This document shows positions 33,558 to 41,100 of a DNA stretch of 64,000 nucleotides, in pieces (position 1 is the first letter of the stretch; every line of letters begins with the position of its first letter). The stretch lies in the NCBI GenBank assembly GCA_000433875.1, contig HF993347.1:22450-86449 (forward strand), read 5' to 3'. The position numbers and the translations under genes were made by a program. Under the pieces are notes generated by a model. It ran no database searches and was not told the origin of the DNA. It worked only from the letters and a program-made list of their open reading frames with translations. This DNA comes from Firmicutes bacterium CAG:884. GTDB lineage: Bacteria; Bacillota_I; Bacilli_A; RF39; UBA660.

Positions 33558-34265
33558 TTAACTTTCAAGACATTTTAATGCATCAACATTAACATATCTA
33601 TTTATCAAACTAATAACAATATTAACAATAGCAGGCGCTAATAAAACAACCACTAAAGCAATAATTCTTGTCTTTATATTTTTAAAAGCCTTCTTTTGAT
33701 CTAAGTCTTTTGAAATAACAACTTTGTATAAATCAATAACACAAAGAATAATAGTTAAACTAACACATCCTATTTGAACATACATCAAAAACTCATTCAT
33801 TACCTTAACAAAATCTTTGCTAATAAGATCACAATTATCAACAACAGTTAAATCTTTCCTATCCTTTATCTTATTTCCCGTAACAAACACATTTTTTTTA
33901 ATTTCTAATTCATTTTCTAATTTTAAACTAATCATTTTATTATCTTTTGCAAGATCTTCACCATATTTTATGGCATCATATAAATCTTCAGCATAGTTAG
34001 CGCAGTAATCATTAATTTCTACACCATCTTCGGTAGTTAATTCTTTAACAGTTCCATAACCACCACTCATTTTTTCTAAATCTCCTTGAGCATATTTTAT
34101 AATTGCAAGTCTCTCTGCAGAATTACACGCTCCAATAAACTTATCATAAGACTCATTAAGTTTAACAAATGCTTTGTTATATTGCTCAAGATAATTTTTT
34201 TTATCATCACCATAAACATTAAATATAAGTAAAAACGTAATTAAAAACAAAATAATTTTTTTCAT
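33558..34265 (-). CDS. Secreted protein of the 8-member paralog family with C-terminal VirB2/TrbC-like two-helix module (member 8, 235 aa)
   Basis: Signal peptide. Conserved C…ER.AI and DNCDLIS stalk. C-terminal VQIGCVSLTIILCVIDLYKVVISKDLDQKKAFKNIKTRIIALVVVLLAPAIVNIVISLINRY…C. Confidence 0.5.
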   Translation of the reverse strand: MKKIILFLITFLLIFNVYGDDKKNYLEQYNKAFVKLNESYDKFIGACNSAERLAIIKYAQGDLEKMSGGYGTVKELTTEDGVEINDYCANYAEDLYDAIKYGEDLAKDNKMISLKLENELEIKKNVFVTGNKIKDRKDLTVVDNCDLISKDFVKVMNEFLMYVQIGCVSLTIILCVIDLYKVVISKDLDQKKAFKNIKTRIIALVVVLLAPAIVNIVISLINRYVNVDALKCLES

Positions 34266-34412
34266 AATTCACCTATAGGAAATCTATCTTAATAAATTAT
34301 AACATAAAGTATTAAAAAAAACTAGATATTTTCTAAAATTTAAATCAAAATATTAAGCAAAAATATACGTTACCATAATACCACTTAAAAATCAATAAAA
34401 AAGAATAAAAAA

Positions 34413-35876
34413 TTATTCTTTTAAATCACTAATAACACATTTAGATGTATCAACTGGAAAATATTTATTAAGTAAATCTAAAAATATCATAACCAATGCT
34501 GGTAACAATAAAACAATTGCTAAATATATCAATCTTTTAGAAATCAATGAAGGCATTTTCTTTCTAGCACTATCATCACCAGCAATTACAGCCTTGTAAA
34601 TTTCAACAATAGATAAGAAAATAACAATAACAACTGCTCCAATACGTAAAGCATTTAATACTTCCTTTATAATATTCCTTAATCCGCTAGAAATAAGTTG
34701 ACATCCATCCTCAACAATCTTTACATTAGCATTTGCATTAGTAAGTAAACCATATCCGATTAGATACTTAGACTGAACATACATATATGATAATTTTGAA
34801 GTAATTTCATCATGATTTGAATAACTATAAAGAATACGATTTAAATTATTTATATTAGAATATAACTCATCCGCTGCTTCTCCGCATTCTGAAGAAAAAG
34901 AATTAAAAAGCATTTTTATTTCATTATCTAAGTATGATGATACATTACCTTTATCATAAAATGTTGCTGTAGTACCACTAGCATATGACTGAATAGCACG
35001 CATTTCGTTTTCGGTACAAACTTTTTTAAATTTTTCTATAGATTTATCTATTGTATTACCTTTTTCATTTAAACAAGACATAATATCCGAAAGCTTATTT
35101 TTTCCATCATTTAAAGGACATATATTTTGTGCATCCGCTACACCATCGACTTCACCAATTATAAAATCCTTTTCATACCTTGATAACATTTGTCTCAAAG
35201 TAACTCCATCAGGTAAACCAGATTTTGATTTCTTATAGTCTTTGCATACCTGTGTAATACCCGATGAAGAAATAATTCTGTTATTATAATAAACTGAACC
35301 ACTAGAATAATTAGGATTAAAATAAAAATAGCCAAGCAATGGAACATATTCAGGACGTTCTGCATAAGTACCATGATAATTTTTCATTCTATTTTCAGTT
35401 ATATAATTACATACGTCTTCAAATGTATATTTTCTTTCAGAACCAGTATAACTTTTGGCATTTATTAAATCATCATTGCAACCTTCACAATATAAAGTAT
35501 TTGAAAGTGCAAAGAACTCATTATAAACGTCAAAAGGCATTACTGTATATTTATTTAATCCAATGGAAACAAGCACAGGACATGCCCCGGTTTGGTTTGT
35601 CGACCCAAACGAGAAAAACTTAGCAAACAATTTATTTTCCGTTGCCCTTTCAACGGTTAAGCCCGATCCATCAGAACTGCCATTTGTATATACCAATTGT
35701 ATTGATTTTTTTCCACCACCAAACGAAAAAGCACTGATCCAATTTATTGAATTATAATTAACTTCATAATATAAAGTATAGTCATTACCATTTATATTAT
35801 ATTTACAAAAATCTGCTTTTACATTTAATATAAAAAGGCAACAAATAATAAATAAACAATTTAATAATTTTTTCAT
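34413..35876 (-). CDS. Paralog family member 7 (487 aa): variable ectodomain + conserved two-helix C-terminal module
   Basis: Signal peptide. C-terminal LRIGAVVIVIFLSIVEIYKAVIAGDDSARKKMPSLISKRLIYLAIVLLLPALVMIFLDLLNKY…C. Confidence 0.5.
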   Translation of the reverse strand: MKKLLNCLFIICCLFILNVKADFCKYNINGNDYTLYYEVNYNSINWISAFSFGGGKKSIQLVYTNGSSDGSGLTVERATENKLFAKFFSFGSTNQTGACPVLVSIGLNKYTVMPFDVYNEFFALSNTLYCEGCNDDLINAKSYTGSERKYTFEDVCNYITENRMKNYHGTYAERPEYVPLLGYFYFNPNYSSGSVYYNNRIISSSGITQVCKDYKKSKSGLPDGVTLRQMLSRYEKDFIIGEVDGVADAQNICPLNDGKNKLSDIMSCLNEKGNTIDKSIEKFKKVCTENEMRAIQSYASGTTATFYDKGNVSSYLDNEIKMLFNSFSSECGEAADELYSNINNLNRILYSYSNHDEITSKLSYMYVQSKYLIGYGLLTNANANVKIVEDGCQLISSGLRNIIKEVLNALRIGAVVIVIFLSIVEIYKAVIAGDDSARKKMPSLISKRLIYLAIVLLLPALVMIFLDLLNKYFPVDTSKCVISDLKE

Positions 35877-35877
35877 A

Positions 35878-36984
35878 CTAACCTCCAGTTATTGCCTTAA
35901 CACATTCACCATTTACCTTTACATAAGAACCAGCTCTATATTTATCAACTAAATCCAAAACAATATTCACAAGTACCGGTAACAATAAGGTAAGCACTAA
36001 AATAATCATACGCTTTACTGAATTAGAAATCCATTTTTTAGTTGCGGAATCATCTTTGGCAGTTAAACACTTCATTCCATCCAAATAAATAAAGAATATA
36101 ACTAAAATAATACAAATTAATCTAAAGGTATCAAAAAAACTATTTAGTATTTTTCTGATATCTTCACTTATAGCATCACAAGCATTATCATCAGTTTTAA
36201 TATCAATCCAAGGAGTACTTAAGGCCGAATATCCAGCATAATAACTATTATATAATGATAAATAATTTAAAGTATTAACGTTTCCACCACCATCAACATA
36301 ATCAGATAAAATGTGATTTAACGCAACAACAGAATTATATAAATCAGATGTTATCTTAGCACATTCATCACTCAATTTTATATTTTTATCATTATATGTA
36401 AATACATTATCCCCATAAAAAGTATTGATTGAATTAAAATCATTATGACTAAAATAATTATAAATTGCAGACCTTTCAATTGAAGTACAAGAACCTTTTG
36501 CATACGCTTCAATATTTACATTCATCTGTTTCCTTGTTTCATCAGAAACACCACTTGATGCTGTTAGTTCCTTTGTATCATAATGTGTATATTTAATTGA
36601 ATTAATTTTATCAGAATTAATTATACCATCAACTTGACCAATTATTTCATTATTTTCATTTCGCACAATTTCATCAGCAGCAATCAAAAGATTAAATTGT
36701 TCTCTATCTCTTGCAATAAAATAATGTTTATTATTATCGCCAAAAAAAGTAATTTGGCCAAGAGTTGGACACACTAATTCACTAGGACTTGCTATTCTAT
36801 TATGATAATAAGCATATTTCTCACCATCTACAACAAAATTAGTAATAACTCCTTCTCCGGCTGAAGATATATAATAACCAAAATTTATTGTTTTTTCACC
36901 AGATTTATATGAACATGATATAGCATCATTACTAGCATATATATTTGGAATAAATAAACATAAAATTAATAATAAGATTTTCAT
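35878..36984 (-). CDS. Paralog family member 6 (368 aa)
   Basis: Signal peptide. C-terminal FRLICIILVIFFIYLDGMKCLTAKDDSATKKWISNSVKRMIILVLTLLLPVLVNIVLDLVDKY…C. Confidence 0.5.
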   Translation of the reverse strand: MKILLLILCLFIPNIYASNDAISCSYKSGEKTINFGYYISSAGEGVITNFVVDGEKYAYYHNRIASPSELVCPTLGQITFFGDNNKHYFIARDREQFNLLIAADEIVRNENNEIIGQVDGIINSDKINSIKYTHYDTKELTASSGVSDETRKQMNVNIEAYAKGSCTSIERSAIYNYFSHNDFNSINTFYGDNVFTYNDKNIKLSDECAKITSDLYNSVVALNHILSDYVDGGGNVNTLNYLSLYNSYYAGYSALSTPWIDIKTDDNACDAISEDIRKILNSFFDTFRLICIILVIFFIYLDGMKCLTAKDDSATKKWISNSVKRMIILVLTLLLPVLVNIVLDLVDKYRAGSYVKVNGECVKAITGG

Positions 36985-40183: not shown

Positions 40184-40194
40184 ATAAAAGCCTC

Positions 40195-40677
40195 CTAACC
40201 AAGTATCTTTTCATCCAAATTATCACCATTTGGCTTTTTATTATTATTGTTATTTTTATTGTTGTTATTATTATTGTTATTATTATTGTCACTACTATCA
40301 CAAGCACCAACAAACTTACAAACACAATTCATTATTTCACTTTTACCTGTAGCGCCTTCTATTATACTAACAAGCATTTGAACAATAGCAACAATAAAAA
40401 ATACAATCCCACCTGTAATTAATCTACTAATTAAAATCTTTTGACCAGCCTTAATCTTATCATCTTTTTGACTTGCTACAGCTTTTCCCATATCAATCAT
40501 ACCAAGTACAATTAGTATAATAGGAACTCCAATTTTAATTAAATTAACAATTGTACTAACAATATTAATAAAAGGTTGTAAATACTCATTATTACATATT
40601 CCTGTTGTCATATCAGTAGCACTAACACTTCCAACTCCAAATAAACTAATAAATAATAAAAAATAAATTAATTTCAT
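40195..40677 (-). CDS. Small VirB2/TrbC-like pilin candidate (member 2, 160 aa) with poly-Asn C-terminal tail
   Basis: Signal peptide. LIKIGVPIILIVLGMIDMGKAVASQKDDKIKAGQKILISRLITGGIVFFIVAIVQMLVSII. C-terminal N10-K-N5 tract. Confidence 0.5.
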   Translation of the reverse strand: MKLIYFLLFISLFGVGSVSATDMTTGICNNEYLQPFINIVSTIVNLIKIGVPIILIVLGMIDMGKAVASQKDDKIKAGQKILISRLITGGIVFFIVAIVQMLVSIIEGATGKSEIMNCVCKFVGACDSSDNNNNNNNNNNKNNNNNKKPNGDNLDEKILG

Positions 40678-40761
40678 ACAAATACCTCAATTTTCTATAA
40701 CAATTATATCATTATAAAAATAAAACTGCAATAAGTACAATAAAAAAGGATGAAAATATTT

Positions 40762-41100
40762 TCATCCTTTACCAACGCCATTAACAAAGCTATCAATGCA
40801 ATTCCAGATATCATTATCATCTGTTCCACCATTTATAACACTGAACAACAATTGGACAATTGCAACAACAAAGAACACAATTCCAGCGGCAATGCATCTG
40901 CTTATTAAGGTCTTTTGACCCTTTTTGATTTCATCTTCTTTTTGACTTGCAACTGCTTTTCCCATATCAATCATACCAAGTACAATCAATATAATAGGTA
41001 CACCAATTTTTATAATTGTTACAATTGTAGCAACAATATTAATTAGCGAATCAGGTACACTAAAACCAGCACAATCTGTAGTTGTATCTAAAAACCACAT
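40762..41100 (-). CDS. Small VirB2/TrbC-like pilin candidate (member 1, 112 aa), no cleavable signal peptide
   Basis: Near-identical core to member 2 (IIKIGVPIILIVLGMIDMGKAVASQKEDEIKKGQKTLISRCIAAGIVFFVVAIVQLLFSVI). RBS GGAAGGAGG. Begins MWFLDTTTDCAG with no hydrophobic signal. Confidence 0.45.
   Translation of the reverse strand: MWFLDTTTDCAGFSVPDSLINIVATIVTIIKIGVPIILIVLGMIDMGKAVASQKEDEIKKGQKTLISRCIAAGIVFFVVAIVQLLFSVINGGTDDNDIWNCIDSFVNGVGKG

Follow-up and report, generated by a model that had tools for sequence, protein, structure and literature searches.

What use could a bacterium have for eight neighboring genes whose products all end in the same membrane hairpin, while several of them carry mutually unrelated domains in front of it? 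This question is raised by an array of eight co-directional open reading frames (ORFs) on the minus strand (positions 33558-41100) of a 64-kb stretch of DNA from Firmicutes bacterium CAG:884 (GenBank assembly GCA_000433875.1, contig HF993347.1, positions 22,450 to 86,449), which as a whole is called the window in the following. A preliminary description had listed these ORFs with their common C-terminal pattern, and all eight were found at these coordinates. The encoded proteins are named by a letter and their length in amino acids (aa), A235, B487, C368, D427, E464, F167, G160, and H112, and are transcribed in the order H112, G160, F167, E464, D427, C368, B487, A235. We consider it somewhat better than an even bet that the array represents a pilin-like hairpin family associated with a type IV secretion system (T4SS) within a chromosomal hybrid Tad-pilus/T4SS operon, with small members that assemble and large members that display exchangeable domains. 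The array then probably supplies the variable surface through which a Gram-positive type IV secretion machine makes contact. The host belongs to the class Bacilli and is an uncultured, spore-forming gut bacterium of low GC content.

The shared module covers the last ~95-100 aa. In it, a hydrophobic helix is joined to a second one, which opens with K-R-x-I, by a loop of 12-15 residues with many K, D, and E, and a short tail containing a cysteine follows. An alignment of the eight C-terminal ~100 aa revealed invariant K, R, I, and C residues at a mean column identity of 44%, and composition-corrected all-versus-all BLASTP connected every member of the array to the family. Pairwise identities were mostly between 22 and 41% (F/G 41%), with the exception of G and H (65%, E=4e-40). 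Among the large proteins, B/C aligned over 249 aa (E=9e-24) and A/B over 213 aa (E=1e-17), and the weakest links between large and small members were found at about 1e-3 to 1e-8. When a profile of the eight modules was compared with 1.84 billion proteins, 9,881 cluster representatives were obtained at E<=1e-3 and 4,178 at E<=1e-10. In 261 distinct relatives from other genomes, the profile positions D41, K44, K55, K56, R64, and C96 were 90-100% conserved. This specific conservation and the size of the family imply that the similarity of the modules, as claimed beforehand, is real and not mere transmembrane composition. Beyond the eight, the window has no further copy of the module.

Cysteines are a second hallmark of the family. 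A cysteine at most 30 residues before helix 1 combined with one at most 25 residues after helix 2 was present in 242 of 262 relatives, and the extracellular cysteine count was even in 214 of the 262. The eight array proteins contain 2, 4, 4, 6, 6, 6, 6, and 12 cysteines outside their membrane segments, all of them even numbers. According to hydropathy, seven of the eight begin with a signal-peptide-like N-terminus and the module contains two hydrophobic segments, a hairpin predicted to be flanked by Cys-rich segments and to have a K/R-rich loop. Because of the signal peptides and the Cys-rich N-terminal domains, both ends of the hairpin are predicted to lie outside and the basic loop inside. 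The termini of VirB3 proteins, by comparison, lie inside. In some relatives (P0165, P0170, P0195, and P0238) the module is located at the extreme N-terminus (~4-100) and followed by 130-340 more residues, an arrangement which recalls the MMCAP2_0566/Mbov_0396 proteins of Mycoplasma, and one relative of 552 aa (P0240) contains six stretches matched by the module profile.

The five large members A-E share more than the module. Profile-profile comparisons with hhalign, performed on alignments of orthologs, revealed a helical, cysteine-containing domain of ~105-120 aa directly before it, here called the stalk, with probabilities of >99% for A/B/C, 99.5% for D/E, 97% for B/D, and 84% for B/E. The preliminary description had recognized this common region as two short Cys motifs; the region is real, and it is a whole domain instead. 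It had also regarded the N-terminal parts of the large members as unrelated to one another, which holds for the outer N-domains of B, C, D, and E (140-255 aa; hhalign probability <3%) and not for the homologous stalk or for A235, which consists of stalk and module and has no N-domain. For E464, 20 full-length homologs with 39-99% identity were available, and an AlphaFold2 (AF2) model calculated with 18 homologs reached a mean predicted local distance difference test (pLDDT) value of 75.5. The model comprises a signal helix, an N-domain made of a four-stranded sheet and helices (pLDDT 80-92), the helical stalk (80-89), and a long hairpin of two helices, H375-410 and H415-451 (53-73).

The small members F, G, and H consist, in agreement with the preliminary description, essentially of the module with a short Cys-containing lead-in, and H112 lacks a signal peptide and offers no space for one. 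All three are strongly conserved between genomes. For H112 this applies in particular to its start, MWFL(D/E)xxTxC, and to the core KIGVPIILIVLGMIDMGKAVASQKEDEIKKGQK, both almost invariant in 19 relatives from other assemblies, and one leaderless small gene of this kind is present in most related loci. The AF2 model of H112 contains a short beta-hairpin and two long helices, H17-52 and H55-89 (pLDDT 72.7). Since H112 is conserved, comes first in the array, and is followed by a terminator-like hairpin, we infer that it is a candidate for the major subunit. Most gaps between the array genes measure 1-11 bp; only those past H112 (84 bp) and past B487 (147 bp) are wider, and both hold a hairpin with a T run, the one after B487 having been found in a repeat search (repeat D8). 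The hairpin after H112 is possibly an attenuator that allows H112 to be expressed above the downstream genes, and the two elements together may possibly fix subunit ratios. A promoter scan showed no enrichment over shuffled sequences. The poly-Asn/Lys tail of G160 (40195-40290) stems from short AT-rich repeats in tandem (repeat D5, 40235-40286), the length of which could be altered by slippage.

That the ectodomains are hypervariable, as had been proposed beforehand, is impossible to read from one sequence, and it was borne out by comparison between strains. In a near-identical strain (L001), blastn found the DNA to be 99.3-99.5% identical to the window over positions 28287-48670 with the exception of two segments, 38644-39585 and 40758-41104. 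Within the first one, which covers the N-domain and most of the stalk of E464, aa identity was 23-67% per 30-residue block and ~30% overall, whereas the signal peptide and the last 120 residues were 97-100% identical. Nevertheless, homology between the two E alleles is retained (hhalign probability 100%). Judged from the two sequences, the alleles differ by the exchange of a cassette whose breakpoints fall where the signal peptide ends and immediately ahead of the module, and such a clean swap of an ectodomain lends weight to the idea of different ectodomains on a conserved core. In the second segment, H112 is replaced in L001 by three small module genes of 154, 114, and 116 aa (7575-8790 of that locus), one with and two without a signal peptide.

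The same picture emerged from seven further strains or species. Identity to the window was 94-99% for VirB4, 83-100% for VirB3, 57-68% for a VirB6-like protein encoded next to the array, and 33-79% for the array genes except for F167 in L003 (96%). An ortholog of B487 is missing from L085; apart from this, the large genes retain their order and sizes across strains of the lineage. In L003, the synonymous divergence (dS) was 0.013 for VirB3 as opposed to 0.5-1.4 for the large array genes and VirB6, and the alleles of the array region are therefore much older than those of their neighbors. The proposed comparison of ectodomains and modules by the ratio of non-synonymous to synonymous divergence (dN/dS) yielded higher values for N-domains (0.2-0.74) than for modules (0.1-0.4). 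As dN/dS was below 1 throughout and dS close to saturation, positive selection was not demonstrated. Particularly variable is the C-terminal ~350 aa of the VirB6-like protein (aa 451-805, encoded at 31131-32198), with a non-synonymous difference (pN) of about 0.57 and a dN/dS of about 0.85. This hydrophilic, Gly/Ala/Ser-rich half cannot be aligned between strains whose VirB4 proteins are 98-99% identical, and the membrane half is ~65% identical between these strains. The protein is an "extended VirB6" with a hypervariable domain that apparently co-varies with the array. Taken together, the array and the VirB6-like gene diverge far faster than VirB4, VirB3, or CpaF, and the data fit a T4SS in which the exposed parts (hairpins and VirB6) were diversified by recombination and the motors conserved. 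Variation by silent cassettes or an invertible switch was considered as well and rejected, since no long inverted repeats were found and substantial repeats were confined to the paralogous segments for module and signal peptide.

Both sides of the array are occupied by genes of secretion and pilus systems (Table 1), in a cluster spanning about 21.8-51.4 kb of the window, with the array genes 3.3-11 kb away from virB4. The VirB6-like protein was assigned by position and its hydrophobic N-terminal half and has only a weak match to the pLS20_p028 conjugation transmembrane family. For the group of VirB3-like, TrsD-like, and VirB4 genes, matches to the Pfam families P-loop_TraG, AAA_10, and DUF87 were obtained, and the VirB4 and TrsD-like ORFs match the NCBIfam Mbov_0397-family VirB4 model, with 349 bits for the VirB4 of the window at a cut-off of 590. 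The VirB3-like and TrsD-like ORFs overlap by 53 nt as called (30769-30821); the trio of 114, 191, and 594 aa recurs in L001, L002, and L085, and the VirB4 functions here split over three ORFs are united in a single 894-aa protein in the Mycoplasma model. Two small ORFs separate VirB4 from the 1419-aa hydrolase. On the other side, the Tad-like genes further comprise a 333-aa protein, two ~150-aa proteins, a 69-aa Flp-like prepilin, and two membrane proteins of TadB/C size, all of which, in contrast to CpaF, RcpC, and DUF5411, were assigned by size, position, and conserved synteny.

Table 1. Features of the array and of the adjoining secretion and pilus genes (positions within the window).
Feature	Position	Strand	Description
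H112	40762-41100	-	small, module-only, without signal peptide; first array gene
G160	40195-40677	-	small; signal peptide, module, poly-Asn C-terminal tail
F167	39680-40183	-	small; signal peptide, short Cys-rich ectodomain, module, Cys-containing tail
E464	38280-39674	-	signal peptide aa 1-30, N-domain 31-245, stalk 246-363, module 364-461
D427	36992-38275	-	signal peptide, N-domain 20-220, stalk 221-331, module 332-427
C368	35878-36984	-	signal peptide, N-domain 18-158, stalk 159-261, module 262-364
B487	34413-35876	-	signal peptide, Cys-rich N-domain 22-275, stalk 276-384, module 385-483
A235	33558-34265	-	signal peptide, stalk, module; no N-domain; best PF18895 match of the eight
Exchangeable cassette within E464	38644-39585	-	aa ~31-344, N-domain and most of the stalk
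Terminator-like hairpin	40745-40770	-	11-bp stem followed by T run; overlaps H112 stop codon and the bases after it
Related AT-rich hairpin and T run after B487	34393-34418	-	
VirB6-like polytopic membrane protein, 805 aa	31131-33548	-	directly downstream of the array
VirB3/PrgI-like, 114 aa	30769-31113	-	assigned by position and motif only
TrsD-like VirB4 N-domain protein, 191 aa	30246-30821	-	Mbov_0397-family VirB4, E=6e-16, model positions 99-276
VirB4 ATPase, 594 aa	28462-30246	-	Mbov_0397-family VirB4, E=3e-104, model positions 294-891
Cell-wall hydrolase, 1419 aa	22571-26830	-	M23 peptidase and SpoIID domain (Pfam); downstream of VirB4; VirB1-type function
Tad-like pilus genes	41118-47386	-	directly upstream of the array
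CpaF ATPase	45079-46149	-	Pfam T2SSE
RcpC/CpaB-like	46158-46970	-	Pfam RcpC
DUF5411	46982-47386	-	Pfam

The setting of the array is chromosomal, with hrcA, grpE, lepA, DivIC, GerQ, Rnf, PBP2, YabG, MGDG synthase, ABC transporter, P-type ATPase, and GH31 genes flanking the cluster. A mobile island was considered and rejected: neither tRNA nor Rfam elements nor a GC shift were found in the window, its ORFs of at least 100 aa contain no relaxase, coupling-protein, or integrase domains, and tblastn probes of VirD4 and MobP3 from the plasmid pBMB68 matched nothing in it. A ComG-like set at 7048-8350, consisting of a protein with the type IV pilin N-terminal methylation motif (PF07963) and two small neighbors, was also observed, so that together with the Tad-like genes and the T4SS hairpins the window encodes three filament-type systems. 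Sporulation markers are present with GerQ (8959-9300), YabG (20434-21177), and the SpoIID domain of the T4SS hydrolase, which indicates a spore-forming, wall-bearing host, although many related metagenome-assembled genomes (MAGs) are titled Tenericutes or Mollicutes. Two large proteins with Listeria-Bacteroides repeats (Flg_new; 60731-62830 and 11557-13617) are likely surface proteins unrelated to the array.

With respect to known families, the preliminary description had placed the module among T4SS-associated pilin-like hairpins, and this part of its assignment is supported. PF18895 (T4SS_pilin) matched six of the eight array proteins, D427 and G160 being the ones without a match. A235 reached exactly the gathering score (26.6 bits), and E, F, H, C, and B remained below it with 12.6-22.6 bits and E-values from 1e-4 to 0.15 (1.5e-4 for F167). 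The same family was matched (E<=0.01) by 81 of 144 diverse representatives of the module family, and no other family recurred meaningfully. Additionally, hydropathy, alignment, and AF2 models agree on two hydrophobic helices with a short polar loop, encoded within a T4SS cluster. By its sequence, the module family is thus placed at the periphery of PF18895. A relation to the Mbov_0395 kind of pilin-like proteins, likewise suggested beforehand, is reflected in matches to NF045849, all of them below threshold: A235 as the best reached 22.9 bits (E=5e-5) and C368 19.2 bits, as compared to a curated cut-off of 40. Sub-threshold matches were also obtained to the NCBIfam families Mbov_0396/MMCAP2_0566.

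In contrast, the proposed kinship to VirB2, TrbC, and TraA could not be sustained. PF04956 (TrbC/VirB2) matched none of the eight array proteins and none of the 144 relatives, and hhalign comparisons of three module alignments with seven annotated plasmid TrbC/VirB2 proteins gave probabilities of 0.15-0.27%. A profile search of the sequences in the PDB returned no solved pilin and only chance matches (E>=0.35), and a Foldseek search with the H112 model returned neither a pilin nor anything below E=1.4. CagC showed a weak match to H112 (E=0.016). The small mature size of VirB2-type proteins (~70-120 aa) fits F, G, and H only, as A-E have 235-487 aa, and the signal peptide followed by helix-loop-helix with both ends out fits by prediction, apart from the missing signal peptide of H112. 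Since PF04956, PDB profiles, Foldseek, and hhalign gave no signal, "VirB2-like" so far denotes an analogy in topology and in the location of the genes. What makes the family pilin-like is its name in the databases, its topology, and where its genes lie; a descent from VirB2 is not demonstrable.

Relatives of the small members are not restricted to this genome. Using an alignment of the small pilin-like proteins as query against one genome per species, relatives were found to be encoded in 152 species-level genomes, and the following comparisons rest on 79 loci sampled from these, which as retrieved stop within the cluster. All 79 derive from gut MAGs (human, rabbit, ruminant, chicken, mouse) titled mostly Bacilli, Tenericutes, Mollicutes, Mycoplasmatota, or Erysipelotrichaceae, with a minority of other titles. 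Nearly every locus contains 2-10 module genes in which small (100-190 aa) and large (230-530 aa) proteins are mixed, and the large relatives carry the module at the C-terminus. The order of the super-operon is conserved in 46-68 loci, depending on the gene. The median protein identity to the window amounted to 78% (VirB4) and 77.5% (CpaF), compared to 31% (VirB6-like protein) and ~32% (both ~150-aa Tad proteins). A VirD4-like gene is located further downstream in 17 loci, none of them belonging to the lineage of the window itself. A near-identity DNA search with the array against 72,556 plasmids yielded no hit, and neither did tblastn with H112 and A235 against plasmids. A related VirB4 (~28% identity, E=2e-71) is encoded by the Bacillus thuringiensis plasmid pBMB68 (NZ_CP010581.1) and by the Mycoplasmatota plasmid CP074574.1. 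On pBMB68 (L090), a 126-aa protein with signal peptide and hairpin is encoded at 9649-10029, just upstream of TrbL/VirB6 (PF18895, E=0.023), and on CP074574.1 (L089), a 781-aa protein at 7094-9439 matches PF18895 with its last ~60 residues (E=0.0012); both are annotated as hypothetical.

From these observations the following mechanism can be proposed. The hairpins would be exported by Sec and inserted with both ends outside and the positive loop in the cytoplasm. A disulfide could join the two outer ends as a putative stand-in for the head-to-tail cyclization of some Gram-negative pilins and would leave the N-terminus available for an added domain. The hairpins might then be pulled out of the membrane by VirB4 and the VirB6-like platform to build a short filament or a wall-spanning conduit, the bulk of which would be formed by the conserved small members, H112 first, whereas the large members would join it as minor or distal components and hold out variable binding domains on the stalk they share. 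These domains would set which target cell or surface the machine engages, with their diversity being kept by recombination between old alleles, and the Tad-like pilus encoded upstream would probably provide long-range attachment.

Several points weigh against this interpretation. Both the filament and its polymerization are predictions. No sequence or fold link to solved VirB2/TraA pilins is detectable, the name of PF18895 is itself a prediction, and the AF2 confidence for the hairpin of E464 amounts to only 53-73. The division into small members as bulk and large members as minor subunits rests on conservation and one terminator-like hairpin, and because a helical tube would leave little room for an ectodomain of 300 aa on every subunit, polymerization may never occur in the large members. 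Furthermore, since dN/dS does not exceed 1 and dS is nearly saturated, the strain comparison shows only fast or mosaic evolution.

The difficulty of fitting large ectodomains on a polymer would disappear if the hairpin were a membrane anchor or docking element, with the large members as surface adhesins or wall struts next to the VirB6-like channel, the small ones as accessories of the channel, and no filament at all. Stalk and N-domain would suit a wall-spanning display protein, solved pilins share no homology with the module, and the Gram-positive T4SSs characterized so far are without pili (PMC12857230). However, mere anchors would hardly explain why small members almost free of an ectodomain are the most conserved and often present in several copies. 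In addition, the conserved Cys clamp and the invariant D/K/K/K/R residues point to a specific assembly interface, and the genes occupy the position of the pilin genes of other T4SSs. We therefore regard this explanation as unlikely, if worth keeping in view. As for the diversity of the ectodomains, escape from phages that use the structure as their receptor or from host antibodies, e.g., immunoglobulin A, instead of target matching, could be the main cause, and the concentration of diversity in exposed parts and VirB6, the dS contrast indicating old alleles shuffled by recombination, and the gain and loss of genes (B missing in L085, three small genes in L001) would all agree with it, as would pilus-specific phages and the antigenic variation of VirB2 paralogs established in Bartonella and Anaplasma (cited in PMC12102498). 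Against such evasion stands a single, packed, co-directional cluster whose large genes have no silent cassettes, inversion sites, or phase-variable repeats, and whose set and order of paralogs are conserved, which rather suits fixed and distinct roles, so that we judge evasion as the main driver to be quite improbable. Very little speaks for a merely generic C-terminal similarity or for a module of VirB3/PrgI-like, holin-like, or other small membrane type, as, even though two-helix hairpins are common, fold searches returned generic hairpins only, and the Mycoplasma counterpart CDS15 is called VirB3-like in a recent review, the module shows specific sequence conservation, a distinct 114-aa VirB3/PrgI-like gene adjoins VirB4, neither PrgI (PF12666) nor holin Pfam families matched any of the eight array proteins and 144 relatives, and signal peptides and Cys-rich N-terminal domains imply both ends outside, the opposite of VirB3.

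Set against known systems, the favored pilin-like hairpins resemble the VirB2/TrbC/TraA proteins (PF04956) of T-pilus and F-pilus in signal peptide, two helices with a basic loop, both ends outside, and a T4SS-adjacent gene, and also in that the outer ends are tied, there by cyclization and here by a putative disulfide. They differ by a longer and much more charged loop, the conserved Cys pair, the large N-terminal extensions, a lack of detectable similarity, and a monoderm host without an outer-membrane core complex. Divergent copies of an exposed subunit in one locus are also known from Bartonella Trw and from the VirB2/VirB5 paralogs of Anaplasma and other Rickettsiales, for which a wider target-cell range or antigenic variation was proposed, Trw being a system without coupling protein (cited in PMC12102498 and PMC12857230). 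As those copies are small, canonical VirB2-type proteins varying in sequence only, while here whole domains are added and cassettes exchanged, this amplification can be considered a functional analogy only.

Closer in sequence are the integrative and conjugative elements (ICEs) of Mycoplasma, which provide the best NCBIfam matches of both the module and VirB4 (NF045849; NF045889/NF045848; Mbov_0397) and in which VirB4 is likewise preceded by a small hairpin gene and a gene for a membrane protein. In contrast to the window, these ICEs are mobile, have a coupling protein, and contain a single small gene instead of an array, with no ectodomain fusions reported. The plasmids pBMB68 and CP074574.1 share with the window the combination of a T4SS with SAF-domain (RcpC-like) and CpaF-type Tad genes and a hairpin gene with a sub-threshold PF18895 match that precedes the genes for T4SS membrane proteins and VirB4; PrgI, TrbL/VirB6, and DUF5411 genes are moreover annotated on pBMB68, DUF5411 on this plasmid only. 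Both differ from the window in being plasmid-borne with one or two hairpin genes, which have no BLAST-level similarity to those of the window, and pBMB68 also in having a MobP3 relaxase and VirD4.

The closest parallel is found in Patescibacteria, where an essential, relaxase-less T4SS of Gram-positive type includes a series of pilin genes, e.g., SEML1_0006-0019 of Southlakia epibionticum (PMC10633639; PMC12102498). A survey counted 441 arrays of 2-11 pilin genes with a core of VirB4, TrsD, PrgI, VirB6, and VirB2-like proteins (PMC12102498). Similar to the window, these are tandem, divergent PF18895/VirB2-like hairpin genes in a Gram-positive-type (MPF-FATA-like) T4SS cluster with the same core (VirB2-like, VirB6, PrgI/VirB3, TrsD, VirB4). 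They are chromosomal, lack both a relaxase and a coupling protein at the locus, and co-occur with a type IV-class pilus. Here, however, the host belongs to the spore-forming Bacilli with ordinary housekeeping genes as neighbors and is not an ultrasmall epibiont, array and Tad-type operon are physically joined, a VirD4-like gene lies close by in some related genomes, and five of the eight members carry ectodomains of 140-390 aa on a common stalk, which were not found in PMC10633639 and PMC12102498. The impression of the preliminary description that such an architecture had not been described therefore requires a correction with regard to the tandem arrays, which are known (PMC10633639; PMC12102498), and stands for the large N-terminal ectodomain fusions and the occurrence in Bacilli, neither of which was found in the literature searched.

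A review from late 2025 considers VirB2-type subunits absent from Gram-positive T4SSs with Patescibacteria as the sole exception (PMC12857230), and whether the pilins of the latter arrived with a monoderm T4SS or were co-opted was left open (PMC12102498). The locus described here extends this exception to Bacillota. The same core and array in Bacilli, the occurrence in 152 genomes, and the single-copy counterparts on plasmids together suggest that the pilin-like component is probably an old and overlooked part of one branch of monoderm T4SSs. The design of ectodomains on a hairpin, with its natural swap, provides a testable model for the choice of targets by a Gram-positive secretion machine and marks the residues to exchange, and it draws attention to these uncultured gut Bacilli as organisms that may rely on touching other cells. 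Only as a tentative and rather doubtful extension would we go further and propose that a widespread lineage of uncultured gut Bacilli possesses a chromosomal, relaxase-less T4SS fused to a Tad system, and that this T4SS builds a heteropolymeric, disulfide-clamped pilus out of conserved small hairpin pilins and modular ones with exchangeable receptor-binding domains. This would be the first Gram-positive T4SS pilus outside Patescibacteria, with Bacillota as sister or source of the patescibacterial machine, and it would serve the engagement of cells and not the transfer of plasmids.

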